Source of the DNA: Pseudodesulfovibrio mercurii
GTDB taxonomy: Bacteria; Desulfobacterota; Desulfovibrionia; Desulfovibrionales; Desulfovibrionaceae
Reading direction: 5' to 3'
Length of the DNA stretch: 32,000 nt
Assembly (NCBI RefSeq): GCF_000189295.2
Contig: NC_016803.1
Span: forward strand, 150,001-182,000
The translations under genes and the position numbers were made by a program. This document shows positions 2,513 to 31,658 of this stretch, piece after piece (the stretch's first letter is position 1; each line of letters starts with the position of its first letter). Under the pieces are notes generated by a model. The model searched no databases and was not told where the DNA came from. It saw nothing but the letters and a program-made list of their open reading frames with translations.

Positions 2513-2545
2513 GGCGGCCCGTGCCTTGGCATGGGCCGCCTTTTT
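2513..2545 (+). terminator. Rho-independent terminator after mop
   Basis: GGCGGCCCGTGCC (2513-2525) pairs with GGCATGGGCCGCC (2528-2540), with one G.U pair. TTTTT follows at 2541-2545. It starts 21 nt after the mop stop. Confidence 0.8.
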
Positions 2546-2561
2546 CCGTAAGTGGTGAACC

Positions 2562-5020: not shown

Positions 5021-5022
5021 CC

Positions 5023-5676: not shown

Positions 5677-6131
5677 TGCTGGACGACGCCGGACTTCGCG
5701 TCATGGAACTTGCCGGAAAGGGCTATTGTTGCAGCCAGATGATGGTCATCATGGCCCTGGACGAGATGGACCGCGAGGACCCGGACCTGGTCCGGGCCGC
5801 GGGCGGGCTGTGCAACGGGCTGGGCGACTGCTCCGGACCGTGCGGCGTGCTCACGGGCTCGGTCCTGGCGCTCGGCCTGTACGCGGGCAAGGGGCAGGAC
5901 ATGGAGGAGCCCGAGGAGGTCCTGCCGGTCATGCTCGAGTCCCTGCGCGACTGGTTTACGGAGCGGACCCTGGAATACGGCGGCATCACCTGCGGGGCGA
6001 TCCTGGACGGCGGCTGCGGCAAGCCCCATCCCGAGCGCTGCGGCGGGTTGGTGGCCGAGGCCAACGCCAAGGTGCGCGAAATTCTGGTCGATAACGGGCT
6101 CGACCCGGCCGAGGGACGCGAGCTGCCGTGA
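5676..6131 (+). CDS. C_GCAxxG_C_C family protein (Cys-rich putative redox protein)
   Basis: The ATG at 5676 shares one nt with the upstream TGA (TGATG). The family-like Cys pattern is GYCCSQ..., CSGPCGVLTGSVLALG, ITCGAIL, ERCGGLV. The upstream part of ORF 5343-6131 overlaps the methyltransferase and was rejected. Confidence 0.85.
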   Translation: MLDDAGLRVMELAGKGYCCSQMMVIMALDEMDREDPDLVRAAGGLCNGLGDCSGPCGVLTGSVLALGLYAGKGQDMEEPEEVLPVMLESLRDWFTERTLEYGGITCGAILDGGCGKPHPERCGGLVAEANAKVREILVDNGLDPAEGRELP

Positions 6132-7510: not shown

Positions 7511-8783
7511 TTGCTGGCTGGCCGGGCGCATGGGGCGCGACGCGACGCCGACCCGGCCCGAGCTGCGCGCCTGGCTGCTGGAGCGGCTGCGGGAGCTGGT
7601 GGACCACGCCCGGCGGGGCAGTCCGTTCTACGCCCGCCACTTCGCGGACGTGTCCGGCGCGGACATTTCGTCCCTGGAGGACTTCGCCCGGTTGCCGGAG
7701 ATATCCCCGGAGCTGCTGCAGACCACCCCGGACGCGCTCCTGAGTGTGTCCCGCAGCGAGATCGAACGGGTGGTCACCCTGTCCAGCTCCGGGACCACGG
7801 GCGAGCCCAAGCGCATCTTCCACACGGCCGCCGACCTTGAGGCCACGGTGGATTTTTTCGGCTGGGGCATGGCCAACATGGTCGAGCCGGGCGGCACGGC
7901 CCTGGTGCTCCTGCCCGGCGAACGGCCCGGCGGGGTGGGGCGACTGCTCGGCGAGGCCCTGGCGCGGCACGGCTCCAGGGTCGTGGCCATCGGCGAACTG
8001 ACGGACGCCGGGGCGGCCGTGGAGCGGTGCCTGGCCGAGAAGGCCGCCTGCGTGGTCGGCTCCCCGGCCCACGTCAACCTGCTGGCCCACGCCTGGGCCG
8101 CGCGCGGCCTGCCCAAGGGGGGCATCCGGTCCGCGCTGCTCTGCTGGGACGTCATCCCTGACGCGGTCCGGGCCAGCGTGGCCGAGCGGCTGGGCTGTCG
8201 GGTCTTCCGCCACTGGGGCATGATCGAGACCGGCCTGGGCGGGGCCGTGGAGTGCGCGCCCGGTTCGGGCATGCACCTGCGCGAGACCGACGTCTTCGTT
8301 GAGATCGTGGACCCGCGCACGGGCGCCTTGCTGCCGGACGGCGAGTTCGGCGACATGGTCGTGACCACGCCGCTCAAGATGGGCATGCCGATCATCCGCT
8401 ACCGCACCGGGGACGTGGGCCGCATCCTGCCCGGCGCGTGCGGTTGCGGCAGTCCCCTGCGTCGGCTGGACCCGCTGGTCCGGCGCAGGCGCGACGGTGT
8501 GACCCTGGCCTCCGGTAGCCTGACCCTGCGGGAACTGAACGAGATTTTGTACGGCCTGCCGGGCGTGGCCGATTTCGCGGCCCGGCTGGAGGGCGACACC
8601 CTGCGCGTCACGGTCTGCGGCAGCGAGCCGGCGGACGCGGTCCTGGCGGCCCTGAAGGGAGCGCCCGCCGTGGCCGGGGGACTTGTCCAAGGCACCCTGA
8701 AGGTGGATATTGAGAACAGGCATGACGCCGCGCCCGCCGTCCCAGGACTGGCCAAGCGGCGCATAACGACAGGAGTTGCATGA
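7491..8783 (+). CDS. Adenylate-forming enzyme, PaaK / coenzyme F390 synthetase-like
   Basis: SSSGTTGEPKR (AMP-binding A3 motif), YRTGD (A8) and a C-terminal GLAKRR Lys motif. The ATG at 7491 has GGGGGA 7 nt upstream and overlaps the radical SAM gene by 20 nt. An alternative ATG lies at 7530. Confidence 0.9.
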   Translation: MGRSHLDCWLAGRMGRDATPTRPELRAWLLERLRELVDHARRGSPFYARHFADVSGADISSLEDFARLPEISPELLQTTPDALLSVSRSEIERVVTLSSSGTTGEPKRIFHTAADLEATVDFFGWGMANMVEPGGTALVLLPGERPGGVGRLLGEALARHGSRVVAIGELTDAGAAVERCLAEKAACVVGSPAHVNLLAHAWAARGLPKGGIRSALLCWDVIPDAVRASVAERLGCRVFRHWGMIETGLGGAVECAPGSGMHLRETDVFVEIVDPRTGALLPDGEFGDMVVTTPLKMGMPIIRYRTGDVGRILPGACGCGSPLRRLDPLVRRRRDGVTLASGSLTLRELNEILYGLPGVADFAARLEGDTLRVTVCGSEPADAVLAALKGAPAVAGGLVQGTLKVDIENRHDAAPAVPGLAKRRITTGVA

Positions 8784-9775
8784 TGAAAGCGTTTGTGCGC
8801 GACGTGGCCGGACTGGTGCGGGCCGAGGAGCCCTTTGTCCTGGCCACGGTGGTGGAGAGTTCCGGGTCCACGCCCCGGTCTTCGGGCGCGAAGATGGCCG
8901 TGCGGCCCGACGGGTCCATTTTCGGCACCGTGGGCGGCGGTCTGGCCGAGGCCCAGGCCTGCCGGGCGGCCGTGGAGATGTTGACGAACGGCGCCAAGGA
9001 CGGCGAGGCCAGGCTGATGTTCGTGGACATGACCCAGGAACTGGCCGCGAATTCCGACATGATCTGCGGCGGCGGGCTGTCCCTGCTCCTGGAAATGGCC
9101 GCTCCGGGCGGTGATTGCGCCCGCGTCTACGCCGAACTCGATCACCGGTTGCGCACGGGGGCGATCTCCACGCTGACCACGCGCATCCACGGCGGCAAGA
9201 CCCCGCGCATCCTCGGGCACGAGCTGCTGTTCGGCAGGTCGGTCGGCGAGGAGCCGGTCTTTTCGCGCGAGGCCGACCCCATGGTCCTGGACGAACCGTT
9301 CATCCCGCCCGCGCCGCTGTACATTTTCGGGGCCGGGCACGTGTCCCGGTTCACCGCGCGGGTGGCGGCCATGGTCGGCTTCCGCACCGTGGTCCTGGAC
9401 GATCGCGCGGACTACGCCAACCGCGAGCGGTTCCCCGAGGTGGACGAGGTGGTGGTCCTCGACTCCTTCGAGGGGTGCTGCGATGCCTTCAAGGACGATC
9501 CCGAGGCCTTCGTGGTCATCGTCACGCGCGGCCACCTGCACGACCGCAACGTCCTGGCCGAGGCCCTGCGCACCAGGGCGCACTACGTGGGCATGATCGG
9601 CAGCTCCACCAAGCGGAACAAGATTTACGACTCCCTGCTGGCCGACGGTTTCACCCAGGCCGACATCGATCGCTGCTACAGCCCCATCGGGCTGCCCATC
9701 GGCGGGCGGACCCCGGAGGAAATCGCGGTCAGTATCGTGGGCGAACTCATCCAGGTCCGGGCGGGCAAGCAATGA
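8780..9775 (+). CDS. xdhC: XdhC/CoxI-family molybdenum cofactor insertion chaperone
   Basis: N-terminal FVLATVVESSGSTPRSSGAKMAV...GTVGGG, then the Rossmann-like half LYIFGAGHVS...VIVTRGH. AGGAG at 8771-8775. The ATG at 8780 overlaps the upstream stop (ATGA); the ATG at 8783 is an alternative. Confidence 0.9.
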   Translation: MMKAFVRDVAGLVRAEEPFVLATVVESSGSTPRSSGAKMAVRPDGSIFGTVGGGLAEAQACRAAVEMLTNGAKDGEARLMFVDMTQELAANSDMICGGGLSLLLEMAAPGGDCARVYAELDHRLRTGAISTLTTRIHGGKTPRILGHELLFGRSVGEEPVFSREADPMVLDEPFIPPAPLYIFGAGHVSRFTARVAAMVGFRTVVLDDRADYANRERFPEVDEVVVLDSFEGCCDAFKDDPEAFVVIVTRGHLHDRNVLAEALRTRAHYVGMIGSSTKRNKIYDSLLADGFTQADIDRCYSPIGLPIGGRTPEEIAVSIVGELIQVRAGKQ

Positions 9776-10920
9776 AGGGGCTGACCGCGATCATCCCGGC
9801 CGCGGGGCTGTCCTCGCGCGTGGGCAGGTTCAAGCCGCTCCTGCCCCTTGACGGCGGCACGGTCCTGTCGCGTTGCGTTCGGCTGTTCAGGACGTGCGGC
9901 GTGGAGCGGGTCGTGGTGGTCACGGGCAAGCGCGCCGACGAGGTGGCCGCCTGCGCCATGGAGGCCGGGGCCGAGGCCGTGCACAACGCGGCCTTCGAGC
10001 AGGGCATGTATTCCTCGGTCCTGACCGGGGTGCGCGCCCTCGAGCCGGACGTGGACGCCTTTTTCATGCTTCCGGCGGACATCCCCCTGGTGCGGCCCGA
10101 GACCGTGACGCGGCTCATGGACGCCTACTCGCGCACGCGATCCACCGTGCTCTACCCCCGGTTCGCCGGGAAGCGCGGCCACCCGCCGATCATCGCCGCC
10201 GAGGTCGTCCCGGACATCCTCGCCCATGACGGGAGCGGGGGGCTGCGGACCGTGCTGAGCCGGTTCGAGGCGGGAGCGCGCGACCTGGACGTGGCAGATT
10301 TCGGAATCTCGTACGACCTGGACCATCTCGAGGACTACGAGATGGCCTTGGCCGTGGCCGGGATAGGCTATCCCCTCGCGGACGAGTGCCGCGAACTGTT
10401 CCGGTTGCAGGGGGTTTCGGACCACATCCGGAACCACTGCCGGGCCGTGGCCGCCGTGGCCTCGGCCCTGTGCGAACGGTTGAACGGCCGTCTGGACGAG
10501 CGCCGGGCCGCCGGGACCCGCGTGGTCCGGCTGGATCCCGGCCTGGTCCTGGGCGCGGCCCTGACCCACGACATCGGCAAGGGCACCAAGCGGCACGAGG
10601 CCGCCGGGGCCGAACTGCTCCGCGCCCACGGTTTTCCCGCCGCGGCCGACGTCGTGGGCGCCCATTTCGACGTGGCCCTGGCCGACGACGCGCCGATCAC
10701 CGAGAAGGAGGTCGTCTTCCTGGCCGACAAGCTGGTCCGCTGCCACGGGCCGGTCCCGCTGGCGGACCGCTACATGGAGAAGGTGGCCATGTACCGGCAC
10801 GAGGAGGGCGCGGAGGAGGCCATCCTGGGACGGCTCGGCCGGGCCAGGGCGGTCATGGACCGCTTCGACCGCGAGATGGCCGATTCGTCCGAACGCATCG
10901 CCGGGCAGGCCCTGTCGTGA
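9772..10920 (+). CDS. MobA/MocA-like NTP transferase fused to a C-terminal HD-domain phosphohydrolase
   Basis: The ATG at 9772 overlaps the xdhC stop (ATGA). N-terminus IIPAAGLSSRVGRFKPLLPL (nucleotidyltransferase P-loop-like) and MLPADIPLV. The C-terminal half has H...LTHDIGKG (HD signature). Confidence 0.9.
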   Translation: MKGLTAIIPAAGLSSRVGRFKPLLPLDGGTVLSRCVRLFRTCGVERVVVVTGKRADEVAACAMEAGAEAVHNAAFEQGMYSSVLTGVRALEPDVDAFFMLPADIPLVRPETVTRLMDAYSRTRSTVLYPRFAGKRGHPPIIAAEVVPDILAHDGSGGLRTVLSRFEAGARDLDVADFGISYDLDHLEDYEMALAVAGIGYPLADECRELFRLQGVSDHIRNHCRAVAAVASALCERLNGRLDERRAAGTRVVRLDPGLVLGAALTHDIGKGTKRHEAAGAELLRAHGFPAAADVVGAHFDVALADDAPITEKEVVFLADKLVRCHGPVPLADRYMEKVAMYRHEEGAEEAILGRLGRARAVMDRFDREMADSSERIAGQALS

Positions 10921-11516
10921 TCGTGCTCCTGCGCCATGCCCGGACCGAGGGCGGCCGGGGGATGTGCGTGGGGCGCACGCCCCTGCTTCTCTCGCCCGAG
11001 GGACACGTCCAGGCCCTGGACCTGGCCGGATGTTTCGTGGAGATTCCGTGGGCGCGGCTCTGTTCCAGCCCGGCGCGCCGGGCGCGGGAGACCCTGAGCC
11101 CGCTGGCCGCCCGGCTGGGCAGGGTCGTGGACATCCTGCCCGCCCTGGACGAGATCGACATGGGCGCGTGGGACGGGTTGCCCTTCGAGGTCCTCCGTGA
11201 GCGGTTTCCCGAGGCCTACGCGGCGCGCGGGCAGGGGCTCGGCCGGTTCCGGGTGCCGGGCGGGGAGAGCTTCGCCGACGTGGCCGACCGGGCCATGGCC
11301 GTTTTGGAGGAGTTGGCCCGAGGTCCGCAGCCGGTGCTGGCGGCGACCCACGCGGGCGTGCTCCGGGCGGTGCGCTGCCGTCTGACCGGCCATCCCCTGG
11401 ACGATCTGTTCCGCTTCACGCCGGGCAACGCGCAGTGCACGGTCCTCGGCACGGACGGCGGGTTGTCCCTTGCCGCTGCCGACCTGGACGCGCCTGCGGT
11501 GCGCGAACTGTTCTGA
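10917..11516 (+). CDS. Histidine phosphatase family protein (CobC / phosphoglycerate-mutase-like)
   Basis: The GTG at 10917 overlaps the upstream stop (GTGA). LLRHARTEG (RHG-type catalytic His) and a second catalytic-His block, LAATHAGVLRA. Confidence 0.85.
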   Translation: MIVLLRHARTEGGRGMCVGRTPLLLSPEGHVQALDLAGCFVEIPWARLCSSPARRARETLSPLAARLGRVVDILPALDEIDMGAWDGLPFEVLRERFPEAYAARGQGLGRFRVPGGESFADVADRAMAVLEELARGPQPVLAATHAGVLRAVRCRLTGHPLDDLFRFTPGNAQCTVLGTDGGLSLAAADLDAPAVRELF

Positions 11517-11534
11517 ATTCCTTCCGGGCCGTTG

Positions 11535-12419
11535 TCACAGCCGTTTCTGGACGAATTTCGAATTGCTCGAATAGAAGATGTTGTAGACAAGGGTCAGCAG
11601 GCAGGCGAACGCCGCCGAGCCGATGCCGATGGCCACGTTGTAGAAGGGCGGCGCGGTCAGGGCCAGCCTGATGAGCAGGGTGGCCAGGGCGAAGCCGGAG
11701 TTGCGGAAGACCGCCCGGAACTCGGGCAGGAACCGCTGGGCGATGAGCACCAGCATGATGTCGCTGAAGATCAGCACCGTGTAGAAGCTCTTGAAGAAGT
11801 GGAAGGGATGCTCGCCCCGGAGCACGTGCAGGCCGTTCTGGATGCCCATGCCCACGAAGATGGCCAGCATGACCAGGGCGACCAGCTTCTTGGCGGCCAC
11901 GAACTTGAACAGCGGGGTGCCCCCCCTGATGGTTTCGTCCAGGTTGCGGCGCAGCAGGGCGTAGACCCCGAGCAGGCAGAAGATGATTACGGCCCCGCAG
12001 CCGTCCGAGATGAGTTCCCACAGCTCGGTCTCGTGGCCGGTGATGGTGATGGGTTCCGGGAAGTCCGCCAGGGTCTTGAAGGCGTCCCTAAGCAGGATCA
12101 GGGCCAGGATCTCGAACTGCTTGCCCACGGACTTGGAGATGGAGCAGGGCAGGGTGAAGATCAGGCCGACCACCTCCAGGACCAGGACCAGGGTGAAGGC
12201 CAGGTTGATGGCCATGAAGTGGCTGGTCGGGATCATTGCTCCGAGCTGCCCGGTGATCCAGCCCTGCCGTTTCATCTCGATGGTGATCAGCGCCAGGACG
12301 AAGACCACCACCAGGAAGCCGGCCACGGCCCGCTGGGTGGAGTCCCTTTCCCAGAAGTGGTGCAGGGGATCGAAGGTGAAGGTCACCAGGTCGTATATCT
12401 TGTGCATGGGATGTAGCAT
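11535..12419 (-). CDS. Polytopic integral membrane protein, function unknown
   Basis: Six or more hydrophobic segments (VAGFLVVVFVLALITI, FMAINLAFTLVLVLEVVGLIF, GAVIIFCLLGVYALL, LVALVMLAIFVGMGI, TVLIFSDIMLVLIA, IGIGSAAFACLLTLV). I prefer the ATG at 12419, preceded by GGAAGAG, over the TTG at 12458 used by the ORF track. It converges on the phosphatase gene with an 18-nt gap. Confidence 0.75.
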   Translation of the reverse strand: MLHPMHKIYDLVTFTFDPLHHFWERDSTQRAVAGFLVVVFVLALITIEMKRQGWITGQLGAMIPTSHFMAINLAFTLVLVLEVVGLIFTLPCSISKSVGKQFEILALILLRDAFKTLADFPEPITITGHETELWELISDGCGAVIIFCLLGVYALLRRNLDETIRGGTPLFKFVAAKKLVALVMLAIFVGMGIQNGLHVLRGEHPFHFFKSFYTVLIFSDIMLVLIAQRFLPEFRAVFRNSGFALATLLIRLALTAPPFYNVAIGIGSAAFACLLTLVYNIFYSSNSKFVQKRL

Positions 12420-17583: not shown

Positions 17584-19797
17584 ATGATTCGCATCAACGA
17601 AATCACCGACAAGGTGGCCTCATACATCAAGGACCCGGACCTGGATCTGATCCAGCGGGCCTACGTCTTTTCCGCCCAGGCCCACGACGGCGTGGTCCGG
17701 CGGTCCGGCGAGCCGTACATCTCGCATCCCATGAACGTGGCCTACCTCCTGGCCGACATGCAGCTGGACGAGGCCACCGTGGCCGCCGGGCTGCTGCACG
17801 ACACCGTGGAGGACACGGACACCACCGTGGACGAGATCGAGGAGCTGTTCGGCTCGGACGTGGCCGACATCGTGGACGGCGTGACCAAGATCAGCCGCAT
17901 GGACTTCGAGTCCAAGGCGGTGCAGCAGGCCGAGAACATCCGCAAGCTCATCCTGGCCATGGCCGAGGACATCCGCGTGCTCATGGTCAAGCTGGCCGAC
18001 CGCCTGCACAACATGCGCACGCTCGAGTACATGAAGCCGGTCAAGCAGCGGCTCATCGCCCAGGAGACCCAGGACATCTACGCGCCCCTGGCCAACCGGC
18101 TGGGCCTGCACCGGGTCAAGACCGAGCTTGAGGACCTCTGCCTGCGCTACCTGCGGCCCGACGTCTATGCCCAGCTCTCCGAGGCCGTGCACGAGCACCG
18201 CGCCGCGGGCGAGCCGTACATCGACAAGGTCATCGGCCTGATCACCGACATGCTCAAGAAGAACAAGATCAAGGGCAGGGTGTTCGGCCGAACCAAGCAT
18301 CTGCACTCCATCCAGGTCAAGATGGAGCAGCAGGGGCTGACCTTCGACGAGATCTACGACCTCATCGCCTTCCGGGTCATCGTCGGCTCGCTCAAGGACT
18401 GCTACGCCGTGCTCGGCCTGATCCATGCGGCCTGGCGGCCCGTGCCCGGCCGGTTCAAGGACTACATCTCCATCCCCAAGGCGAACATGTACCAGTCGCT
18501 GCACACCACGGTCATGGGGCCGGACGGCGAGCGCATCGAGATACAGATCCGCACCGAGGAGATGCACCGCATCGCCGAATACGGCGTGGCCGCCCACTGG
18601 CAGTACAAGGAGGTGGGCAAGGGGGCCAAGAAGGGCAAGACAGCAGGCCGGCGCGACGCCGAGCGGTACACCTGGCTCAAGCAGATCATGGACTGGCAGC
18701 GCGAGCTGTCCGACCCGCGCGAGTTCATGTCCTCGCTGCGGCTGGAGATGTTCCAGGACGAGGTCTACGTCTTCACCCCCAACGGCGACATCAAGGAGTT
18801 GCCCGACGGGGCCACGCCCGTGGACTTCGCCTATTCCATCCACTCCGAGGTGGGCGACAAGTGCGCCGGGGCCAAGGTCAACGGCCGCATCGTGCCGTTG
18901 CAGTACCGGCTCCAGAACGGCGACTCGGTGGAGATCATCACCGACAAGAACCGCGTGCCCAGCCGGGACTGGCTCAAATTCGTCAAGACCGCCAAGGCCC
19001 GGACCCGGATCAAGCACTACACCCGCACCGTGGAAAAGGAGCGGGCCATCAGCCTGGCCAAGGAGATGCTCGAGAAGGAAGGCCGCCGGGTGGGCATCAA
19101 CATGCAGAAGGCCATCAAGGACGGCGAGCTCATCAAGCTGGCCGGGGAGTTCAACTGCGGAAGCGTGGACGAGCTTCTGACCCAGATCGGCTTCTCGCGC
19201 TTCACTCCGCGCAAGGTCGTCAAGCGCCTCTACGCGGTCCTGCACGGCGAAACCCTGGACGAGCGGAAGCTCAAGGAGAAGGCGGCCGTCGCCACGGAAC
19301 CCGAGGAAGAGCAGCAGCCCTCGGCCCCCTCGCCCGTGGAGATCGGCAAGAAGCCCAAGGCCGACGGGTTGCAGATTTCCGGTGTGGACAATGTGCTGGT
19401 CCGCTTCGCCTCCTGCTGCAACCCCCTGCCCGGCGAGCCGATCATCGGCTACATCACCCGGGGCCGGGGCGTGACCGTGCACCGCATCGACTGTCCCAAC
19501 GTGGGCCACTTCGAGGACGAACGCCTCATCCAGGTCAGCTGGGAGGGTGTGGAGGAGAAGCCGTATCCGGCCAAGGTCAAGATCAAGTGCCTGAACAAGC
19601 CGGGCATGCTCGGCCGCATCTGCTCCATGCTCGCGGACCTGGACGTGAACATCGACTCCGGCGAGTTCGAGTCCAAGGTGGACGGCACCACGCTGCTCAA
19701 CTTCACCGTGGAGGTCAAGGATCTGGACCAGCTCTACTCCGCCCTGGCCGAGGTCAAGAAACTCAAGGCCGTGAAGGAGGCCATCCGCGTCTCCTGA
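17584..19797 (+). CDS. rel: Bifunctional (p)ppGpp synthetase/hydrolase, RelA/SpoT family
   Basis: HD hydrolase domain (HPMNVAYLL...LLHDTVEDT), synthetase domain (GRTKHLHSIQVKM, DLIAFRVIV), TGS domain (VYVFTPNGDIKELPDGATPVDFAYSIHSEVG) and C-terminal ACT domain (VKIKCLNKPGMLGRICSMLADLDVNI). Confidence 0.97.
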   Translation: MIRINEITDKVASYIKDPDLDLIQRAYVFSAQAHDGVVRRSGEPYISHPMNVAYLLADMQLDEATVAAGLLHDTVEDTDTTVDEIEELFGSDVADIVDGVTKISRMDFESKAVQQAENIRKLILAMAEDIRVLMVKLADRLHNMRTLEYMKPVKQRLIAQETQDIYAPLANRLGLHRVKTELEDLCLRYLRPDVYAQLSEAVHEHRAAGEPYIDKVIGLITDMLKKNKIKGRVFGRTKHLHSIQVKMEQQGLTFDEIYDLIAFRVIVGSLKDCYAVLGLIHAAWRPVPGRFKDYISIPKANMYQSLHTTVMGPDGERIEIQIRTEEMHRIAEYGVAAHWQYKEVGKGAKKGKTAGRRDAERYTWLKQIMDWQRELSDPREFMSSLRLEMFQDEVYVFTPNGDIKELPDGATPVDFAYSIHSEVGDKCAGAKVNGRIVPLQYRLQNGDSVEIITDKNRVPSRDWLKFVKTAKARTRIKHYTRTVEKERAISLAKEMLEKEGRRVGINMQKAIKDGELIKLAGEFNCGSVDELLTQIGFSRFTPRKVVKRLYAVLHGETLDERKLKEKAAVATEPEEEQQPSAPSPVEIGKKPKADGLQISGVDNVLVRFASCCNPLPGEPIIGYITRGRGVTVHRIDCPNVGHFEDERLIQVSWEGVEEKPYPAKVKIKCLNKPGMLGRICSMLADLDVNIDSGEFESKVDGTTLLNFTVEVKDLDQLYSALAEVKKLKAVKEAIRVS

Positions 19798-19825
19798 TCC
19801 CGGCATTCCCCTGAAAACGAGAAAA

Positions 19826-19854
19826 GGCCCGCCTGAGAGCGGGCCTTTTCTTTT
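19826..19854. terminator. Bidirectional rho-independent terminator between rel and the convergent gene
   Basis: GGCCCGC (19826-19832), loop CTGAGA, GCGGGCC (19839-19845). The stem is flanked by AAAA on the 5' side and TTTTCTTTT on the 3' side, so it reads as a terminator on both strands. Confidence 0.8.
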
Positions 19855-19883: not shown

Positions 19884-20339
19884 CTAGTCGGTGGCCAGGA
19901 TCTGGAGGGAGAGCATCTGGCCGCCGCCGATGCTCAGGTAGGAACCCTGCACCGAGGAGGTGGTCACGTTCCGGTGGCCGGTGTGCACCTCGCGCCGCAC
20001 CTCGCGCGGACGTTGGCCCTGAAAGTGGCGGCCCTGAAAGCGGTGTTCCTGATGATGGCGGGGGGAGTTCGCCTGCTGATGGCGCACGTTGTGGCCCGGC
20101 TGCATGAAGCGTTGGCCGGACATGCCGGGAGCGGACTGCCGGACGCCCTGGTTGCCCTGGTTGTGATAGGACTGGTTGCCCTGGTTGTGGAAGGACTGGT
20201 TGCCCTGTCGGCTCTGCTGGTTGAACTGGCGGACGGCCTGGCCGTGGTTGTCCCGGCCGTTGTTCCCGGGACCGGCCCAGGCGGAAGCGGTGAAGCCGAG
20301 CATGCACAGGGTCAGGGTCAGGATGATGAAGCGTCGCAT
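19884..20339 (-). CDS. Secreted His/Gln/Asn/Arg-rich low-complexity repeat protein, function unknown
   Basis: ATG at 20339 with AAGGAG 6 nt upstream. Sec signal peptide MRRFIILTLTLCMLGFTASAWA|GP. The mature part has GNQSFHNQGNQSYHNQGNQG repeats and HH/HxH clusters (PRHHQEHRFQGRHFQG). A sigma-54 promoter lies upstream and a terminator downstream. Confidence 0.75.
   Translation of the reverse strand: MRRFIILTLTLCMLGFTASAWAGPGNNGRDNHGQAVRQFNQQSRQGNQSFHNQGNQSYHNQGNQGVRQSAPGMSGQRFMQPGHNVRHQQANSPRHHQEHRFQGRHFQGQRPREVRREVHTGHRNVTTSSVQGSYLSIGGGQMLSLQILATD
20148..20207 (-). repeat. 24-bp tandem repeat (2.5 copies) inside the His/Gln/Asn-rich gene
   Basis: CTGGTTGCCCTGGTTGTGATAGGA / CTGGTTGCCCTGGTTGTGGAAGGA / CTGGTTGCCCTG on the plus strand. 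It encodes the GNQS[FY]HNQ units. Confidence 0.9.
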
Positions 20340-20377
20340 AATGTCTCCTTGGTTTTGGTTTCGTTGATTTCAATATG

Positions 20378-20392
20378 GCAAGGGGTGTGCCA
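20378..20392 (-). promoter_or_regulatory. Sigma-54 (-24/-12) promoter of the His/Gln/Asn-rich protein gene
   Basis: The minus strand reads TGGCAC-ACCCC-TTGC, an exact match to the TGGCAC-N5-TTGC core. The TTGC ends 38 nt upstream of the ATG at 20339. An AT-rich tract lies immediately upstream (20393-20435). Confidence 0.75.
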
Positions 20393-20455
20393 TTTCTTAA
20401 CATGCTGTTTACTTTGATAATATTTTTTATCGTTTCGCGGCGGAGCGCAGGGTTT

Positions 20456-20469
20456 GCGCACGCGTGCGC
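20456..20469. promoter_or_regulatory. Perfect 14-bp palindrome GCGCACGCGTGCGC, candidate enhancer (UAS) for a sigma-54 activator
   Basis: It is self-complementary over 14 bp, and its centre is 72 bp upstream of the -24 GG. It contains the TGCGCA(C) half-site that is also repeated upstream of the cytochrome c3 promoter. Confidence 0.4.
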
Positions 20470-20555
20470 GCCGGTGGGAAGGTTCGGTCGGTGGCGGCGT
20501 TCCCTGCGGCCGCCCCGGATGTCCCGTCCGGAGGCCTCGGCCTCCCGGAAACGGG

Positions 20556-20578
20556 AAGGCCCGCACGGGGCGGGCCTT
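20556..20578 (-). terminator. Probable terminator of the cytochrome c3 gene
   Basis: AAGGCCCGC / GCGGGCCTT stem with a 5-nt loop, 28 nt after the stop. The downstream U-tract is weak (CCCGUUUCC). A second GC hairpin lies at about 20528-20548. Confidence 0.45.
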
Positions 20579-20605
20579 CGGGGTGTGGGGGATGGGGTAT
20601 GGAGG

Positions 20606-20992
20606 TTATTGGTGGCACTGCTTGCAGGAGGCCGGGGCGGGCTTGCCGTCCTTCTTGGCGGTCTTGTGGCAGCCCAGACAGCTGCGGTCGGTGTCCTTGC
20701 CGTGGAAGGCGGTGTAGAAGGCGGTCTCGCCCTTCTTGCCGGGCTGGTCGTGGCAGCCGGAGGAGCCGCACGCCCTGATGTCGGACTTGCCGTCCCAGGT
20801 GTGGTGGCAGGTGGTGCAGTCGGCGGCCCGGTTCAGGTGAGCGCCGTGGGGAAAGTCCACCGGCGACTTGACCGCTTCCATGGTCTTGGGCGGTTCGAGC
20901 CGGAGGGTGTCCGGGGCCGTGGGCCCGGCCCAGGCCGAAGCGGCCAGTCCGAGGGAGCACAGGGCCGTCAGGGTGATCAGAATACGTCGCAT
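20606..20992 (-). CDS. Tetraheme cytochrome c3 (periplasmic)
   Basis: ATG at 20992 with GGAGG 6 nt upstream. Signal peptide MRRILITLTALCSLGLAASAWA|GP. Four heme sites: CTTCH, CGSSGCH (CxxxxCH), CLGCH, CKQCH, plus distal His residues (FPHGAH, FH). The mature size is about 104 aa. The 189-aa ORF-track version runs through the promoter and the upstream terminator and was rejected. Confidence 0.93.
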   Translation of the reverse strand: MRRILITLTALCSLGLAASAWAGPTAPDTLRLEPPKTMEAVKSPVDFPHGAHLNRAADCTTCHHTWDGKSDIRACGSSGCHDQPGKKGETAFYTAFHGKDTDRSCLGCHKTAKKDGKPAPASCKQCHQ

Positions 20993-21032
20993 GATGCCTC
21001 CAATGGTTTGCGTTCGTGTTACTGTACGCATC

Positions 21033-21047
21033 GCAAGGCGTGTGCCA
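21033..21047 (-). promoter_or_regulatory. Sigma-54 (-24/-12) promoter of the cytochrome c3 gene
   Basis: The minus strand reads TGGCAC-ACGCC-TTGC, an exact core match. The TTGC ends 40 nt upstream of the ATG at 20992. The context AAATGGCACAC.CCTTGC is shared with the promoter at 20378-20392. Confidence 0.75.
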
Positions 21048-21097
21048 TTTACAACCGGCTGAAATATTTGAAAGGAAAAATACGTCCGTTGCGGGCA

Positions 21098-21115
21098 TGC
21101 GCACATGTTGCGCAC
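21098..21115. promoter_or_regulatory. TGCGCAC-ATGT-TGCGCAC repeat, candidate UAS for the cytochrome c3 sigma-54 promoter
   Basis: Two TGCGCAC copies sit 11 bp apart, and their centre is 61 bp upstream of the -24 GG. TGCGCA is itself palindromic. Confidence 0.4.
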
Positions 21116-21133
21116 GTTTGGCGCCGGGAACGC

Positions 21134-21162
21134 AAAAAGGGGGAGCACCGAAGCGCTCCCCC
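21134..21162 (-). terminator. Rho-independent terminator of the amino-acid ABC operon
   Basis: GGGGGAGC (21139-21146) pairs with GCTCCCCC (21155-21162). The plus-strand AAAAA at 21134-21138 gives UUUUU after the stem on the minus strand. It starts 27 nt after the permease stop. Confidence 0.8.
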
Positions 21163-21188
21163 CTTGTCTGGTCATGTTCCGGGACCGG

Positions 21189-22952
21189 CTACATCTCGAT
21201 GCGCACGGTCTCGGGGCTGAGTTTGCGTTCGAGGCGTTTGGCGTAGAGGCTCATGAAGTAGCTGAAGACGAAGTAGAGCACGGCCACGGTTGTGTAGATC
21301 TCGAAGGGGTAGACCATGATCCGGTTGTTGATGGCGTAGGCCGCGCGGGTCAGCTCCATGACGCCGATGATGTAGGCCAGGGAGGTGTCCTTGAAGGCGG
21401 CGATGAACATGCCGACCAGAGCGGGGAGCATCTGCTTGAGGGCCTGGGGCAGGACGATCTTGCGCATGGTCTGGAGGTAGGTCAGGCCCGAGGCCTTGGC
21501 CGCCTCCACCTGGCCGGGCGGGATGTTCTCGATGCCGCCGCGCACGGTTTCGGCGATGTAGGCGCCGAAGAAGAAGGTCATGGCGATGGTCGCGGCCCAG
21601 AAGGCCTGGACGTCCACCTTGAAGACGAATTCGAGGATGGCCTGGTAGAACCACAGGATGACCAGGATGAGCGGCACGCCCCGGATGAGTTCGATGTAGA
21701 GCAGGCAGGGGATGCGGAAGACGCGGTTGTGCGCGGTGCGGCCCATGCCCACCACAAGGCCGATGAAGAAGCTGCCGGTGATGGAGATGGCGGCCATGAG
21801 CAGGGAGCCGGCCAGGCCGCCCAGGCCGTAGCAGAACTCGGTCTCGTCGCCGTTGGGGAAGCGCCAGATGAGCAGGGTTTTGAGGTTGGCCCCGATGATG
21901 GCCCAGTTGAAGTGCACCAGGGCCACGGCGATCTTGTAGAGGACGTAGGCCAGGGCGGCGACGAAGAGGATCTTGAGGGCCAGGATGCACTGCCTGGCGA
22001 GTTGGCGCAGGGCGCCGCGCAGGGGCGAGACCGTGCGCTGGTCCGGGCTCTTGCGGAAATACCAGAAGACGTATTCGAGCTTGCGGCCGAGGAAGTCGAA
22101 GGGCCAGAAGAGGACGTCCGCCACCCTGCGCAGGGGGGTGATGCGGTCGCGGGGCATGATCTTGAGGCGCTCGTTGACGATGTAGAGGATGCCCGCGATG
22201 GACAGGGACAGACCGAGGTAGACCACGGTGGCCACGGAGAAGGCCTCGAAGGTCCGGTAGGTCAGGGAGTACACCTCGGTCATGGACCAGCACAGTTCGG
22301 TCACGCCGATGGTCATGGCCAGGGAGGTGTTCTTCATGTTGTTCAGGAACTCGCTGCCCAGCGGCGGAATGATCTCGCGGAAGGCCAGCGGCAGGATGAC
22401 CTTGCGCAGGGTCTGGGGAAAGGTCAGGCCCGAGGAGTAGGCGGCTTCGAGGAGCCCCTTGGGAATGGACTGGATGCCCGCGCGGATGATCTCGGCCATG
22501 AACGCGCCGGTGAAGATGCCGCAGCCCACGGTGGCGCACCAGAATTCGAAGTTCATGTCGAACAGCTTGAGGCGCAGTTCCTCGGGAAAGGCGTAGGGCA
22601 GGGCGAAGTTCCAGAAAAAGAGCTGGATGAGCAGCGGGGTGTTGCGGAAGAGCTCCACGTAGCAGGTGGAGAACCAGTAGACCGGCTTGAAGGAGGACAG
22701 CCGGGCCAGGCCGAAGACCGTGCCCATGACCAGGGCGATGGCCGCCGAGTAGACGGTGATGGTCAGGGTGGTGTTGATGCCGTTGAGCATCAGGTGGCCC
22801 ATGTGGCCGTACTGGCCCTCGACGGCGAAGACCGCCCAGTCGAAGTCGTACTTGAACTCGAATATGAAGGCGAAATAATAGACGACCAGGCCCGTCAGGA
22901 CCAGGAGGGTCAGGTTCTGGACCCAGATTTTCTCGAAATACCGTTTTATCAT
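21189..22952 (-). CDS. Amino-acid ABC transporter permease, two fused permease domains (His/Glu/Gln/Arg/opine family)
   Basis: 587 aa with two EAA-loop blocks: EAAYSSGLTFPQTLRKVILPLAFREIIPPL and VEAAKASGLTYLQTMRKIVLPQALKQMLPAL. Each follows a FRNTPLL / IRGVPLI type segment. Confidence 0.93.
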   Translation of the reverse strand: MIKRYFEKIWVQNLTLLVLTGLVVYYFAFIFEFKYDFDWAVFAVEGQYGHMGHLMLNGINTTLTITVYSAAIALVMGTVFGLARLSSFKPVYWFSTCYVELFRNTPLLIQLFFWNFALPYAFPEELRLKLFDMNFEFWCATVGCGIFTGAFMAEIIRAGIQSIPKGLLEAAYSSGLTFPQTLRKVILPLAFREIIPPLGSEFLNNMKNTSLAMTIGVTELCWSMTEVYSLTYRTFEAFSVATVVYLGLSLSIAGILYIVNERLKIMPRDRITPLRRVADVLFWPFDFLGRKLEYVFWYFRKSPDQRTVSPLRGALRQLARQCILALKILFVAALAYVLYKIAVALVHFNWAIIGANLKTLLIWRFPNGDETEFCYGLGGLAGSLLMAAISITGSFFIGLVVGMGRTAHNRVFRIPCLLYIELIRGVPLILVILWFYQAILEFVFKVDVQAFWAATIAMTFFFGAYIAETVRGGIENIPPGQVEAAKASGLTYLQTMRKIVLPQALKQMLPALVGMFIAAFKDTSLAYIIGVMELTRAAYAINNRIMVYPFEIYTTVAVLYFVFSYFMSLYAKRLERKLSPETVRIEM

Positions 22953-23023: not shown

Positions 23024-23848
23024 CTACGGCCACATCTCGATCTTGGAGGTCAGCGGGAAGGGATACTGGGAATCCGGGCCGAACCACTTGTCGTAGATCT
23101 GCTTGTAGGTGCCGTCCTTCCAGATGTCCTGGAGGGTGAAGTTGATGGTGTCGCGCCACGCGGAGTCGTCCTGGGGCAGGCCGATGCCGTAGGGCTCGTC
23201 GGAGATGAAGTCGCCGACCAGTTCGAACTGGCCGGGCACCTTGGCGGCGTAGCCGAGCAGGATGGTGGAGTCGGTGGTGATGGCCTGGACGCGGCCGGAA
23301 CGCAGGGCCTCGAACATGGCGACTTCGCCGTCATACCCGGTGACGGACGGGTTCGGGTTGCCCAGTTCCTTCAGGTAGGCGGTGGCGTTGACGATGGAGG
23401 TGGTGCCCTGCATGGAGCCGACCTTCATGTTGGCCAGGTCCTTGACGTCCTTGACCGTGCCCTTCTTGGCCAGGAACTTCTGGCCGTCGAAGAAGTAGGT
23501 GATGGAGAAGTCGATCTTCTCGTCGCGCACGCGCTTGTGGGTCATGTTGGACAGGACCATGTCCACCTTGGGCGGGTTGGTCTGGACGAAGGAGATGCGG
23601 GTGTTGTTGTTGACCACGACCTTCTCGAGCTTGCAGCCGAGGCGCTTGGCGATCTCGGTGGCCATGTCGACGTCGAAGCCGACCCACTCGTTCTTGTCGT
23701 CGATGAAGCCGAACGGGATGCCCTGGTTGGACAGACCGACCTTGAGGGTCTTCGTGGACATGACGCGGTCGTAGGTGGGACCGGCGTACGCGAAGGAAGC
23801 GGCCAGGACCAGCAGCGCGGCCATGGCGGTGATTTTGAGAACTCTCAT
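23024..23848 (-). CDS. Amino-acid ABC transporter substrate-binding protein (family 3)
   Basis: Signal peptide MRVLKITAMAALLVLAASFAYA. Family-3 blocks LKVGLSNQGIPFGFIDDKNEWVGFDVDMATEIAKRLG and DEPYGIGLPQDD. AGGAGAGG RBS. Confidence 0.93.
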   Translation of the reverse strand: MRVLKITAMAALLVLAASFAYAGPTYDRVMSTKTLKVGLSNQGIPFGFIDDKNEWVGFDVDMATEIAKRLGCKLEKVVVNNNTRISFVQTNPPKVDMVLSNMTHKRVRDEKIDFSITYFFDGQKFLAKKGTVKDVKDLANMKVGSMQGTTSIVNATAYLKELGNPNPSVTGYDGEVAMFEALRSGRVQAITTDSTILLGYAAKVPGQFELVGDFISDEPYGIGLPQDDSAWRDTINFTLQDIWKDGTYKQIYDKWFGPDSQYPFPLTSKIEMWP

Positions 23849-23923: not shown

Positions 23924-24652
<729 letters not shown>

Positions 24653-28574: not shown

Positions 28575-28943
28575 CTACCGTCCGGCGGCGTCCAGGATGC
28601 GTTTCCAGAGCCGTTCCAGGGGCACGGGCTTGAGCAGGTAGTCGAAGGCCCCGGCGTCCAGGGACTGCATGTGCCGGGTCATGTCGCCTTCGCCCGTGAG
28701 GACGATGACCTCGGTCTCGGGGAAGTTCTTGCGGATGATCTTGAGGGTCTCGATGCCGTTCAGGTCGGGCATGTTCATGTCCAGCAGGACCACGTCCACG
28801 GGGCCGGATTCCAGCACGGCCCAGGCGTCCACGCCGCCTTCCGCCGTGCGCACGGACGCCCCGAGGTGGCCGAGCCGCCGGGACAGGGCGGCGACAAAGG
28901 CGGCCTCGTCGTCAACGAGCAGTATGCGGACGGGATCGGTCAT
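28575..28943 (-). CDS. Stand-alone response regulator receiver (CheY-like, 122 aa)
   Basis: ILLVDDE, phospho-acceptor context VVLLDMNMPDLNG, VIVLTG, and the conserved Lys in YLLKP. AGGAGAA RBS upstream of the ATG at 28943. Confidence 0.9.
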   Translation of the reverse strand: MTDPVRILLVDDEAAFVAALSRRLGHLGASVRTAEGGVDAWAVLESGPVDVVLLDMNMPDLNGIETLKIIRKNFPETEVIVLTGEGDMTRHMQSLDAGAFDYLLKPVPLERLWKRILDAAGR

Positions 28944-29426
28944 GCCTGGTTTCTCCTGTGTTGGTTCCTTTCAATGAACATGCCAGCCGTTGCATGCGCA
29001 CCACGTCTTGATACTTTTTTCTCCGCTTGTCGATGACAAATTAAAAACTGTAATTTCAGGATGTTGAGTAACAATGGTTCGGAAGGAACCACCCGCTGCA
29101 ACAGGGAACACAAAATAAATTGCCATAAGGATTCAAGGCAATGAAGGGATAAGTGGGGTGTTTTTACCCGCATTGTGATATGAATGTTTCGGGGGTCCCT
29201 TTCTACGGGGTTTCAGGGTGGTAAAAGGGTATCGGTACATTTTGTATCACTGGGAGGAAAAGTACCACTTACTTCATGAAAATAGCAAAAAACAGGGTGC
29301 AGAAAGGGTCCATATTGGTCCGCGAGGGGCTGCGGACGGCAAGAGGATGTTTTTTGATAATATAGTTATTTCAAAAAGTTATAAAAAGTAGCGGCGGCCG
29401 TCATCCAGCTCGCGCGGTGACGGCTG

Positions 29427-29441
29427 TGGCACACGATTTGC
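29427..29441 (+). promoter_or_regulatory. Sigma-54 (-24/-12) promoter of the histidine kinase operon
   Basis: TGGCAC-ACGAT-TTGC on the plus strand, an exact core match, 77 nt upstream of the ATG at 29519. It lies inside the N-terminal extension that the ORF track gives the kinase (29417). Confidence 0.75.
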
Positions 29442-29518: not shown

Positions 29519-31234
29519 ATGCATCCGGAGCGGAAGTCATCCTACGACAACCTGTCGCGAAACCTGTCGCTGACGGTCATCACGGTGTCCTTTGCCCCGC
29601 TGATCCTGGTGGGCGGCCTCATCTTCCATCAGTTCCGTTCCATATACACCGAAAAGGTCTTCGCCCACCTGGCCGAGGTGGTGGACAAGCACGCGGCCGA
29701 CATCAACACCTTTCTGCAGGACAAGCTCACCGAGGTCCAGTACATCAGCCGGACCTCCACCTTCCAAGACCTGACCACCTCGAACCACCTGGAAAAGGCC
29801 CTGCGCGGGATGCAGCAGCAGTACGGCCGCATCTTCGTCGATCTGGGCGTGGTCGACAGCCACGGCCGCCAGGTGGCCTATGCCGGTCCGTTCAGCCTTT
29901 TGGGCGCGGACTATTCAGGGGCGGACTGGTTCCGCAACTCCAAGGAGCGCGACGCCATCATCAGCGACGTCTTCGAGGGGTTGCGCCAGTCCCCCCACTT
30001 CATCATCTCCGTCAGCCAGGGGCGGGGCGAGGATCGCTGGACCCTGCGGGCGACCATCGACTTCTTGTCCTTCAGCTACCTGGTTCAGAACATCCGCATC
30101 GGCGAGACCGGCTTCGCCTACATCCTGAATGGCCGGGGCGTGTACCAGACCCGGCCCAAGGACGAGCACAACCAGGACCTGGAGCTGACCCCGCGCCGCC
30201 GGATCGCCGACTTCAACTCCGTGCCCGGCGTGTCCATCGCCGAGTCCGTGGACAAGGGCGGCGACACCTACGTCACGGTGACCGCGCCCCTCAAGGGCGG
30301 CGACTGGAAGCTGGTCTACCAGCAGAACACCTCGGACGCCTTTTCGGCCATGACCCGCACCGAGTACGTCACCCTGGGCATCTTTCTCATCGGCGGCCTG
30401 GCCATCGTGGCCATGGCCCTGATCATTTCGCGCAAGCTCGTGCTTCGCTTCCAGGCCATCGACCAGGAATCCGAGCTCATGAGCAAGCAGATCGTCGAGA
30501 CCGGCAAGCTGGCGGCCATCGGCGAACTGGCCGCGGGCATCGCCCACGAGATCAACAACCCTGTAGCCATCATGATCGAGGAGGCGGGCTGGGTCAGCGA
30601 CCTCCTTGAGGACGAGGGCCAGGACCTGCCGTCCTACGGCGAGATCAAGCGGGCGCTGACCCAGGTGGGCAACCAGGGGCGGCGGTGCAAGGACATCACC
30701 CACAAGCTCCTGTCGTTCGCCCGGCAGTCCGACACCAGGGCGACCGAGATGTCCGTGCCCGACTTCATCCGCGAGGTGGTGGAGATCTCCATGCAACAGG
30801 CACGCTTCGCCCAGGTGGATTTCGACCTCGACCTGGACGAGTCCATGCCGCGCATCTCGGCCTCGGCCACGGAATTGCAGCAGGTCCTGCTCAACCTGGT
30901 CAACAACGCCATTCAGGCCATGGAGCCGGACGGCGGCAAGCTGTTCATCCGCTGCGGCGTGGAGGAGGGCCAGGCGGCCATCACCGTGGAGGACACCGGG
31001 CCCGGCATCCCGGCCGCCAACCTGGCCCGCATCTTCGACCCGTTTTTCACCACCAAGCCCGTGGGCAAGGGCAGCGGGCTCGGATTGTCCATATGTTTCG
31101 GAATCATCCACCAGATGGGTGGAGAAATAGATGTGGAGAGCACTGTGGGCAAGGGCACGCGGTTCACCATCCGTCTGCCGCTGCCGATGCCCGCCAGGCA
31201 ACCTGAAACGCGACAGGAGATTCGACATGACTGA
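29519..31234 (+). CDS. Sensor histidine kinase with a periplasmic Cache-like domain
   Basis: TM1 LSLTVITVSFAPLILVGGLIF, then a periplasmic segment of about 270 aa (VDSHGRQVAYAGP...ADWF), then TM2 VTLGIFLIGGLAIVAMALII. H-box LAAGIAHEINNP, N-box LLNLVNNAIQAM, G1 VEDTGPGIP, F FDPFFTTK, G2 GSGLGLSI. Confidence 0.9.
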   Translation: MHPERKSSYDNLSRNLSLTVITVSFAPLILVGGLIFHQFRSIYTEKVFAHLAEVVDKHAADINTFLQDKLTEVQYISRTSTFQDLTTSNHLEKALRGMQQQYGRIFVDLGVVDSHGRQVAYAGPFSLLGADYSGADWFRNSKERDAIISDVFEGLRQSPHFIISVSQGRGEDRWTLRATIDFLSFSYLVQNIRIGETGFAYILNGRGVYQTRPKDEHNQDLELTPRRRIADFNSVPGVSIAESVDKGGDTYVTVTAPLKGGDWKLVYQQNTSDAFSAMTRTEYVTLGIFLIGGLAIVAMALIISRKLVLRFQAIDQESELMSKQIVETGKLAAIGELAAGIAHEINNPVAIMIEEAGWVSDLLEDEGQDLPSYGEIKRALTQVGNQGRRCKDITHKLLSFARQSDTRATEMSVPDFIREVVEISMQQARFAQVDFDLDLDESMPRISASATELQQVLLNLVNNAIQAMEPDGGKLFIRCGVEEGQAAITVEDTGPGIPAANLARIFDPFFTTKPVGKGSGLGLSICFGIIHQMGGEIDVESTVGKGTRFTIRLPLPMPARQPETRQEIRHD

Positions 31235-31658
31235 TGCCACTGTTTTGATCGTGGACGACGAACGGGGGTTCGTCGAGACCATGGCCAAGCGGCTCGAAAA
31301 GCGCAACATGACCGTTTTCCAAGCCTTCGACGGTGACGAGGCCATGGTCCGGTTGGCGGAACATCCGAACATCCAGGTGGTCATCCTGGATATGAAGATG
31401 CCCGGCAAGGACGGCCTTGTCGTGTTGCAGGAGATCAAGGAAGCGCACCCCCTGGTCGAGGTCATCATGCTGACCGGTCACGCCACGGTCCCCTCGGCCG
31501 TGGAGGGCATCCAGCACGGAGCGTACGACTATCTGATGAAGCCGTGCAGCTTCGAGGACCTGAACCAGAAGATCGCCGAGGCCGTAGCGCTCAAGGGCGA
31601 GAACGAGGAAGCGGCCATCGAGGCCCGGCTCAGCAAGATCGCCGGGCGCATGGGGTAG
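31227..31658 (+). CDS. Stand-alone response regulator receiver (143 aa)
   Basis: The ATG at 31227 overlaps the kinase stop by 8 nt. VLIVDDE, VVILDMKMPGKDG, VIMLTGH, YLMKP. A short helical C-terminal tail has no output domain. Confidence 0.9.
   Translation: MTDATVLIVDDERGFVETMAKRLEKRNMTVFQAFDGDEAMVRLAEHPNIQVVILDMKMPGKDGLVVLQEIKEAHPLVEVIMLTGHATVPSAVEGIQHGAYDYLMKPCSFEDLNQKIAEAVALKGENEEAAIEARLSKIAGRMG

Follow-up and report, generated by a model that had tools for sequence, protein, structure and literature searches.

What leads two neighbouring genes to share a promoter and a signal peptide when the mature proteins that they encode have nothing in common? The question is raised by a tandem pair on the minus strand of a 32,000-nucleotide stretch of the Pseudodesulfovibrio mercurii ND132 chromosome (NC_016803.1, positions 150,001 to 182,000), called here the window, in whose numbering all coordinates are given. 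The first gene encodes a tetraheme cytochrome c3 (20606-20992, minus strand; WP_014320802.1, 128 amino acids), assigned by its PF02085 domain and its identity to the accession. The second, DND132_0155 (19884-20339, minus strand; WP_014320801.1, 151 amino acids), is an open frame with no family match. Both proteins are 100% identical to RefSeq entries of ND132, the host of both genes. The ATG of c3 is at 20992, which corrects the start coordinate of an initial annotation made from the letters alone. We keep its label "His-rich gene" for DND132_0155 and its relatives in other genomes. Comparison with the c3 loci of 47 genomes and several metagenome contigs, numbered L001 upward, leads us to consider it probable that c3 and DND132_0155 are tandem monocistronic sigma-54 units answering to one enhancer-binding protein, and that the orphan sits on a copied c3 5' cassette. 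The paired cassettes themselves are real and far beyond chance, and their interpretation is supported by conservation, by geometry and by a sharp boundary of homology.

The product of the first gene matches PF02085 with an E-value of 4e-23 (82.1 bits, against a cut-off of 22.9), and its best matches in the Protein Data Bank are the c3 structures 1I77, 1CZJ and 2BQ4. Four heme motifs (CTTCH, CGSSGCH, CLGCH and CKQCH, at residues 59, 75, 105 and 123) and a total of eight histidines are found in it. As judged from these features it is a genuine class III tetraheme cytochrome, type I-like: PF02085, four hemes, bis-histidine ligation, a Sec signal peptide and lysines near heme 4 are all in common with type I c3 (cycA). 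Its heme 4 motif is CXXCH, like that of Desulfomicrobium c3 (1CZJ), and not CXXXXCH. An identity as TmcA, the acidic type II c3, was rejected, with an NF045722 score of 48.7 against a cut-off of 114 and with an ABC permease and relA as neighbours. The gene setting is a further difference. The usual context of type I c3 (cycA) is cbiG-cobJ-c3, where the homologues of L017-L019 (38-44% identical) lie without a sigma-54 box; the ND132-type c3 instead lies between an amino-acid ABC permease and relA, with a putative sigma-54 promoter.

DND132_0155 encodes a protein with no heme site, no Pfam match at E-values up to 10 and no NCBIfam match. Its mature part consists of 17% glutamine, 14% glycine, 11% arginine, 9% asparagine and 8.5% histidine, with HNQGNQ repeats and an isoelectric point of 11.9; the label "His-rich" overstates its histidine content. 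In the AlphaFold2 model the mature part has a predicted local distance difference test (pLDDT) score below 50 and the sole helix covers residues 3-21, so that the product is predicted to be a basic, disordered periplasmic protein rich in Gln, Gly, Arg, Asn and His. A stress protein of the ZraP/CpxP/Spy type was rejected as a candidate, given the missing Pfam and NCBIfam matches and a mature part modelled as disordered and not as a helical LTXXQ fold. The two mature regions show no similarity in seven genomes, where comparison with codon-shuffled controls gives z-scores from -1.3 to +1.7. Hidden or frameshifted homology, sought with blastn, tblastx and codon shuffles, was likewise rejected and gave composition-driven noise only. 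The claim that the mature proteins are unrelated, with four heme sites in one and none in the other, therefore holds on both counts.

The promoters tell a different story from the mature proteins. The sequence TGGCAC-N5-TTGC, with five free positions (N5), occurs exactly at three sites in the window, all intergenic and all oriented toward a start codon: at 21033-21047 (minus strand) upstream of c3, as TGGCACACGCCTTGC; at 20378-20392 (minus strand) upstream of DND132_0155, as TGGCACACCCCTTGC; and at 29427-29441 (plus strand) upstream of a histidine kinase gene that starts at 29519. The gap from TTGC to the ATG is 40, 38 and 77 nt, respectively, and the boxes of c3 and DND132_0155 share the context AAATGGCACAC(C/G)CCTTGC, all as first described. 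Dinucleotide shuffles of the window gave 0.10 expected sites, and three were reached in 0 of 100 shuffles. Allowing one mismatch adds no further site in the window. With -24 GG and -12 GC elements at the exact spacing, a fixed distance to the ATG and an upstream activator site, both boxes fit promoters that we infer to be dependent on sigma-54 (RpoN). Ribosome-binding sites, read from the sequence, are GGAGG for c3 (20997-21001, minus strand) and GGAG for DND132_0155 (20345-20348, minus strand).

Each of the two promoters is preceded by the same putative activator site. For c3 it is TGCGCA-ACATG-TGCGCA (21098-21114, minus strand), 17 bp long and nearly a perfect palindrome, which begins (first T) 67 nt before the T of TGGCAC; for DND132_0155 it is TGCGCA-AACCC-TGCGC (20445-20460, minus strand), an exact match to TGCGCAA located 68 nt before that T. 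In the window, TGCGCA-N5-TGCGC is found exclusively at these two sites (0.03 expected). Every His-rich gene that we examined has an upstream site of the same type, and where the motif is matched in c3 and His-rich promoters the offset to the -24 element stays between -66 and -70. Since the same rare palindromic site occurs at the same offset in both promoters, the data support c3 and DND132_0155 as members of one regulon. Between the activator site and the -24 element, after an A/T-rich tract, lies a core resembling the binding site of IHF: TTTCAGCCGGTTG for c3 (21052-21064, minus strand) and AACAGCATGTTA for DND132_0155 (20398-20409, minus strand). In both cases the resemblance to the consensus WATCARNNNNTTR was assessed solely by eye, and one position deviates in ND132; when c3 and His-rich promoters from many loci are aligned, a (W)TCAGCNNGTT-like element reappears at this place.

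A GC-rich hairpin follows c3 and a strong bidirectional terminator follows DND132_0155, which makes each gene a transcription unit of its own. The first hairpin (20555-20579, minus strand; 10-bp stem, centroid energy -20.7 kcal/mol, z -2.1) has a weak U tail, is a probable terminator and is found at the same place 3' of c3 in L001 and L004. The second (19820-19851; 14-bp stem, -25.3 kcal/mol, z -4.6) is flagged on the plus strand too and is shared between DND132_0155 and the convergent relA/spoT gene. The data show directly the sequence elements with their statistics, their conserved and fixed geometry, the boundary of homology and the narrow distribution and constant place of the orphan gene; what we infer comprises the roles of sigma-54, of an activator and of IHF, the cleavage site, the co-induction of both genes, the direction of copying and any function of the disordered protein. 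The activator would bind the pair of TGCGCA hexamers, 11 bp apart centre to centre and 67 nt upstream of the -24 element; DNA bending at the IHF-like site, between enhancer and promoter, would then allow it to remodel the RNA polymerase-sigma-54 complex held at TGGCAC-N5-TTGC. Transcription would start about 11-12 nt past the GC, near 21022 for c3 and 20367 for DND132_0155, and each leader would be some 28-30 nt long and include the GGAG(G) ribosome-binding site. Both products would be exported by Sec with near-identical signal peptides, cut between AWA and GP, and would yield a type I-like tetraheme cytochrome c3 and a very basic, intrinsically disordered periplasmic protein.

Conservation across the genus points the same way. 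The c3 gene is preceded by a sigma-54 box in L001-L016 (as the variant TGGAAC in L008), L023 and L053-L055. About 18 Pseudodesulfovibrio-type lineages keep this box, mostly in the permease-c3-relA setting, and the box of DND132_0155 is kept in 8 of the 8 lineages that carry the gene. From the T of the -24 element to the ATG the distance is 53-60 nt across loci, apart from 51 nt at the His-rich gene of L055 and about 99 nt at the c3 gene of L023. Most box-bearing c3 loci also have a TGCGCAA-type hexamer 66-70 nt upstream of the box. In L017-L052 except L023, whose c3 homologues are less than 45% identical, neither box nor upstream hexamer was found. Sigma-54 control of c3 throughout Pseudodesulfovibrio is supported by these comparisons and, being conserved across the genus, would not be a quirk of ND132. 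It is highly improbable, in our judgement, that the TGGCAC-N5-TTGC elements are not used as promoters. Against that idea stand the excess of exact, intergenic and correctly oriented matches over chance and the positions of box and upstream site, which about 18 lineages have kept even though divergence of the DNA around them approaches randomness. On the coding strand of either gene, a sigma-70-like promoter that might serve instead was not seen.

Which activator might be responsible? The sigma-54 activator signature was absent from every locus examined except L023, a Desulfovibrio metagenome-assembled genome. There (3834-7457), a c3 homologue that is 36% identical has the same upstream site at -68 together with a sigma-54 box, and is adjoined by a convergent histidine kinase with a HAMP domain and an NtrC-type response regulator (5889-7457 and 4489-5850, respectively). 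This pair is the sole candidate for the cognate regulators that we found. The kinase at 29519 in the window was considered as an orthologue of the L023 kinase and rejected, the catalytic core being all that the two have in common.

The third box of the window appears to belong to another system. It stands 77 nt upstream of the gene of a dCache sensor histidine kinase (29519-31234), followed by response-regulator genes at about 31224-31658 and from 31672 to the window end, the second of which runs off the window. Since the TGCGCA site is absent from this promoter, a different activator is likely, and the kinase system is possibly autoregulated. The region upstream of the kinase is A/T-rich and contains a 12-nt inverted repeat (29283-29294 and 29348-29359). 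On the minus strand, at 28575-28943, a stand-alone receiver-domain response regulator of 122 amino acids is encoded divergently from the kinase operon with its putative sigma-54 promoter.

The resemblance of the two 5' modules does not stop at the promoter. Each gene begins with a predicted Sec-type signal peptide of 22 codons (20927-20992 in c3 and 20274-20339 in DND132_0155, both minus strand), with cleavage placed between AWA and GP by the -3/-1 alanine rule, applied by eye to c3. Their sequences, MRRFIILTLTLCMLGFTASAWAGP and MRRILITLTALCSLGLAASAWAGP, agree in 15 of 24 positions, the last seven included, and the agreement covers the n-region and an unusual L.LC.LG core. In ND132 the comparison gives z 12.7, within a range of z 10-16 over ND132, L001, L053 and L054. 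As a control we used the unrelated signal peptide of an SBP_bac_3 protein (...LAASFAYAGPT), which scored z 4.2 against c3 and 2.8 against DND132_0155. The likeness noted at first is thus far above the generic level, with the reservation that part of the C-terminal identity is generic in this organism. The control protein is encoded two genes away (N-terminus at 23770-23848, minus strand), and its signal peptide MRVLKITAMAALLVLAASFAYAGPT closes much as those of c3 and the orphan do, with A.AGP behind an AAS stretch; many Sec substrates of the host may have such a c-region, which would inflate naive comparisons.

Nucleotide alignment of the two 5' modules, proposed in the initial annotation, bears out a strong similarity. 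The local alignment begins at the -24 box, reaches the final codon of the signal peptide and has a score of 82, against 18 +/- 2.3 for shuffled sequences (z about 28); the region of the third sigma-54 promoter resembles neither module (z 1.2 and 0.5). Overall, the similarity between the two genes comprises the enhancer site, the promoter, the leader and the signal peptide, and it ends at the predicted cleavage site.

Unlike the c3 promoter, the orphan gene has a narrow distribution. Two exhaustive searches returned about ten relatives (10 matches in 1.84 billion representative proteins), and the order permease-c3-His-relA was found for every member of the family that was looked up. Identity to ND132 in genomes with the gene is 92.5-95% for RelA and 87.5-92% for the permease, against at most 87% and at most 77% in genomes without it. 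The family is therefore young and restricted to a tight clade, while c3 and its promoter are genus-wide. Within the clade the frame is open in at least eight lineages despite many indels, the middle being hypervariable with in-frame indels and repeats. G+C content is 89% at third (GC3) and 45% at second (GC2) codon positions, the pattern of real genes, and one alternative frame is interrupted by four stops. The signal peptide is the best-conserved part, with a nonsynonymous divergence (dN) of 0.05-0.21; conservation also extends to the ribosome-binding site, the ATG, the C-terminal ...I.I.TT(D/E) motif, the promoter, the upstream site and the terminator. These conserved elements, together with the GC3 of 89%, argue that DND132_0155 is expressed and kept.

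Several observations weigh against the reading of one regulon on a copied cassette. The window contains no gene for a sigma-54 activator, with the possible exception of the response regulator that starts at 31672 and is cut off by the window end. In its right half the upstream site reads TGCGCN in ND132-type sites and SGTACG in most c3 orthologues (S being C or G), so that a single common activator is not certain. Generic Sec signal peptides of this genome already give z 3-4, as the unrelated SBP_bac_3 control scores that high, and in L004, L007, L011 and L055 the c3 and His-rich signal peptides of the same genome resemble each other at this generic level, no more closely than unrelated ones do. 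Over the spacer from upstream site to -24 element the two modules have an identity of only 36-42%, so that much of the promoter similarity could be functional constraint. Lastly, the ratio of nonsynonymous to synonymous divergence (dN/dS) of the orphan is 0.58-0.88, almost neutral beside the 0.15 of relA, and at least 1 in the C-terminal part.

Some of these points would suit pure convergence, in which the two genes entered the regulon independently, their promoters being alike through the demands of sigma-54 and a common activator and their signal peptides through the stereotyped form of Sec signals in this organism, and no DNA was copied at all. The c-region pattern of the SBP_bac_3 signal peptide and the poor conservation of the spacer DNA between promoter elements speak for such a course. 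We nevertheless think it very unlikely, since the similarity of the c3 and orphan signal peptides is far above that of the generic comparison and includes the n-region and core, and since the orphan gene is found solely immediately downstream of c3.

The divergence rates raise the different prospect that DND132_0155 is not a working gene and is instead a decaying remnant of a tandemly duplicated c3, or a chance open reading frame that still has a promoter. In addition to dN/dS values that reach at least 1 toward the C terminus, this would account for the predicted disorder of the mature part and the hypervariable middle; moreover, at 65% G+C long stop-free frames are common and many open reading frames are spurious. 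The contrary evidence is the frame kept open in at least eight lineages with its codon-position bias, the joint conservation of the signals for expression and export and of the C-terminal motif, and the finding that no frame retains more likeness to mature c3 than codon-shuffled controls do. On these grounds we hold a non-gene to be improbable. For the protein itself, a metal- or polyanion-binding periplasmic partner produced along with c3 is our guess.

How the two modules came to be alike can be approached from variation at c3 itself, whose 5' module exists in two types. Type A combines an MRRI... signal peptide with TGCGCA-N5-TGCGCN and resembles the His-rich modules, all of which are type A in style; type B combines an MxRF... 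signal peptide with TGCGCA-N5-SGTACG and is found in L004, L007, L011, L055 and all outgroups. Between ND132 and L004 or L007 the flanks are at least 90% identical in nucleotide sequence, against only 25-62% over the tract 21190-20810, which begins where the permease gene ends and reaches about codon 60 of c3, some 110 nt past the signal peptide into the mature protein. The 3' half of c3 is again 82-95% identical, after which identity drops once more. The same sharp mosaic (20810-21190) is seen when L011 is compared. Synonymous divergence (dS) is 0.75 in the 5' tract and 0.21-0.27 in the flanks, a difference of about threefold. Taken together, the mosaic identity and this threefold excess indicate that one group or the other had the 5' half of its c3 swapped by recombination, through allelic replacement.

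This pattern is compatible with two histories. In the first, the orphan cassette would have been duplicated from a type A c3 gene, and type B genomes would later have imported an outgroup-like allele. In the second, a His-rich module would later have converted the 5' end of c3 in the type A lineage. Duplication and conversion scenarios both require two events; the extension of the divergent tract into mature c3 speaks for the first history, though not decisively.

The second history amounts to concerted evolution in place of retained ancestry: with the two tandem genes already neighbours, a His-rich 5' module, from upstream site to signal peptide, would have gene-converted the c3 5' end in the lineage of ND132, L001, L053 and L054, and the similarity seen in ND132 would be secondary. 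This is a possible course that we regard with some doubt. Type A appears derived, type B being the form that is like the c3 genes of all outgroups, and the sharpness of the mosaic suits conversion as well. But a His-rich donor cannot supply the roughly 110 nt of divergent mature c3 sequence, for which an imported c3 allele fits better. Nor is the expected closeness within ND132 observed: across all His-rich genes, the nucleotide identity of their signal peptides to the c3 of ND132 and L001 is 68-76%, and the ND132 c3 signal peptide is 68% identical to its own neighbour against 74-76% for distant His-rich genes. As it is no closer to its own neighbour, any conversion would have to be old.

We return to the copying of the c3 cassette. 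As in a partial tandem duplication, the homology is limited to the 5' cassette, with a sharp boundary, and the new gene adjoins its presumed donor and is younger. The orphan 5' cassette is most likely a copy of that of c3, joined to an unrelated low-complexity coding sequence. The initial annotation had offered a duplicated regulatory and export cassette or co-option into one regulon as alternatives, and the comparative data lend support to both halves of that proposal.

We class the finding with known kinds, a sigma-54 regulon and a chimeric gene made by 5'-cassette copying. In the ZraSR-ZraP system of enterobacteria a sigma-54 promoter drives a small His-rich periplasmic protein. DND132_0155 is similar in encoding a small exported His-containing protein behind a putative sigma-54 promoter with a palindromic activator site, and a two-component NtrC-type regulator is plausible at the locus, judging from L023; unlike ZraP, its protein is predicted to be disordered and not helical, and it has no ZraP/CpxP/Spy match. 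In Borrelia burgdorferi, the ospE/ospF/elp (erp) genes share an upstream homology box and a leader among lipoproteins with unrelated mature parts, which is attributed to 5'-cassette recombination. There, too, a promoter plus signal-peptide cassette is common to genes with unrelated mature proteins. The erp genes have sigma-70-type promoters and lipoprotein leaders and form many members on multicopy plasmids, whereas ND132 has a single chromosomal tandem pair; the ND132 cassette, moreover, would hold a complete sigma-54 enhancer-promoter, and its recipient is an orphan low-complexity gene.

The sigma-54 regulome of Desulfovibrio vulgaris Hildenborough includes nrfHA and ohcBAC (regulator DVU3142; Kazakov et al. 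2015, PMC4641369). Like c3 of ND132, these encode periplasmic multiheme c-type cytochromes of Desulfovibrionaceae behind -24/-12 promoters with upstream activator sites. No tetraheme c3 is listed in that regulome, and "cytochrome c3" is absent from its text and supplements. The ND132 upstream site (TGCGCA-N5-TGCGCA or -SGTACG) matches no motif of PMC4641369, the nearest in style being CGTGCG-N4-CGCACG of DVU0679 and TGTGCA-N6-TGCACA of DVU1419; in the texts and supplements of Kazakov 2015 and Rajeev 2011 neither the upstream site nor c3 was matched. In the literature that could be searched we found no paper on c3 and DND132_0155 of ND132 and nothing of use on Pseudodesulfovibrio type I c3, and a search for TGCGCA with an enhancer-binding protein returned eukaryotic C/EBP matches only. 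A 2024 study, in turn, assigned WP_014320801.1 to a PpcA/c3 orthogroup, where it was an outlier that belonged to none of the clades (PMC11434368, section 3.3.1), an independent echo of the shared cassette. As this accession is the heme-less DND132_0155, the grouping is probably due to the signal peptide shared with c3. The locus is an annotation trap, in which a shared signal peptide probably led to an orphan protein being reported as a divergent PpcA/c3 homologue.

Turning to the neighbourhood, the gene order is ABC ATPase (23924-24652), binding protein (23024-23848), fused permease (21189-22952), c3, DND132_0155 and relA/spoT. The genes of this amino-acid ABC transporter precede c3, and relA/spoT (17584-19797) is convergent with DND132_0155. 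An Rfam search of the window gave no RNA family. At about 2000-12000 the G+C content is 0.68-0.72, against 0.60-0.66 in the remainder of the window. That stretch encodes a molybdopterin oxidoreductase of the aldehyde/xanthine type, an Fe-S/CCG-domain protein, a methyltransferase, a radical SAM protein, an AMP-binding enzyme, XdhC and a histidine phosphatase; possibly it forms a functional island of its own.

In Desulfovibrionaceae, tetraheme c3 serves as the central electron hub of the periplasm, and its expression is usually taken to be constitutive. If a sigma-54 promoter and a conserved enhancer control it across the genus, the c3 level of Pseudodesulfovibrio would be set by a signal-sensing activator, and the inducing signal would be relevant to hydrogen and formate metabolism, to metal reduction and to mercury methylation in ND132. 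The locus would also be a clean and datable example of a new secreted protein gaining regulation and export in one step, by the copying of a 5' cassette. In its fullest form the account says that the orphan gene was born when the c3 cassette was copied in front of a sequence without protein ancestry, that this at once yielded a regulated, exported and disordered protein rich in His, Arg and Gln, that the protein has been retained as a partner of c3 induced with it in the periplasm, where metal or mineral handling in this mercury-methylating group would be one possible role, and that the main carrier is under enhancer control genus-wide; as a whole we consider this speculative and rather unlikely. 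If this c3 is the main one of its hosts and its control is as proposed, an entire genus of sulfate reducers would have its principal electron carrier of the periplasm under enhancer-dependent, not housekeeping, control.

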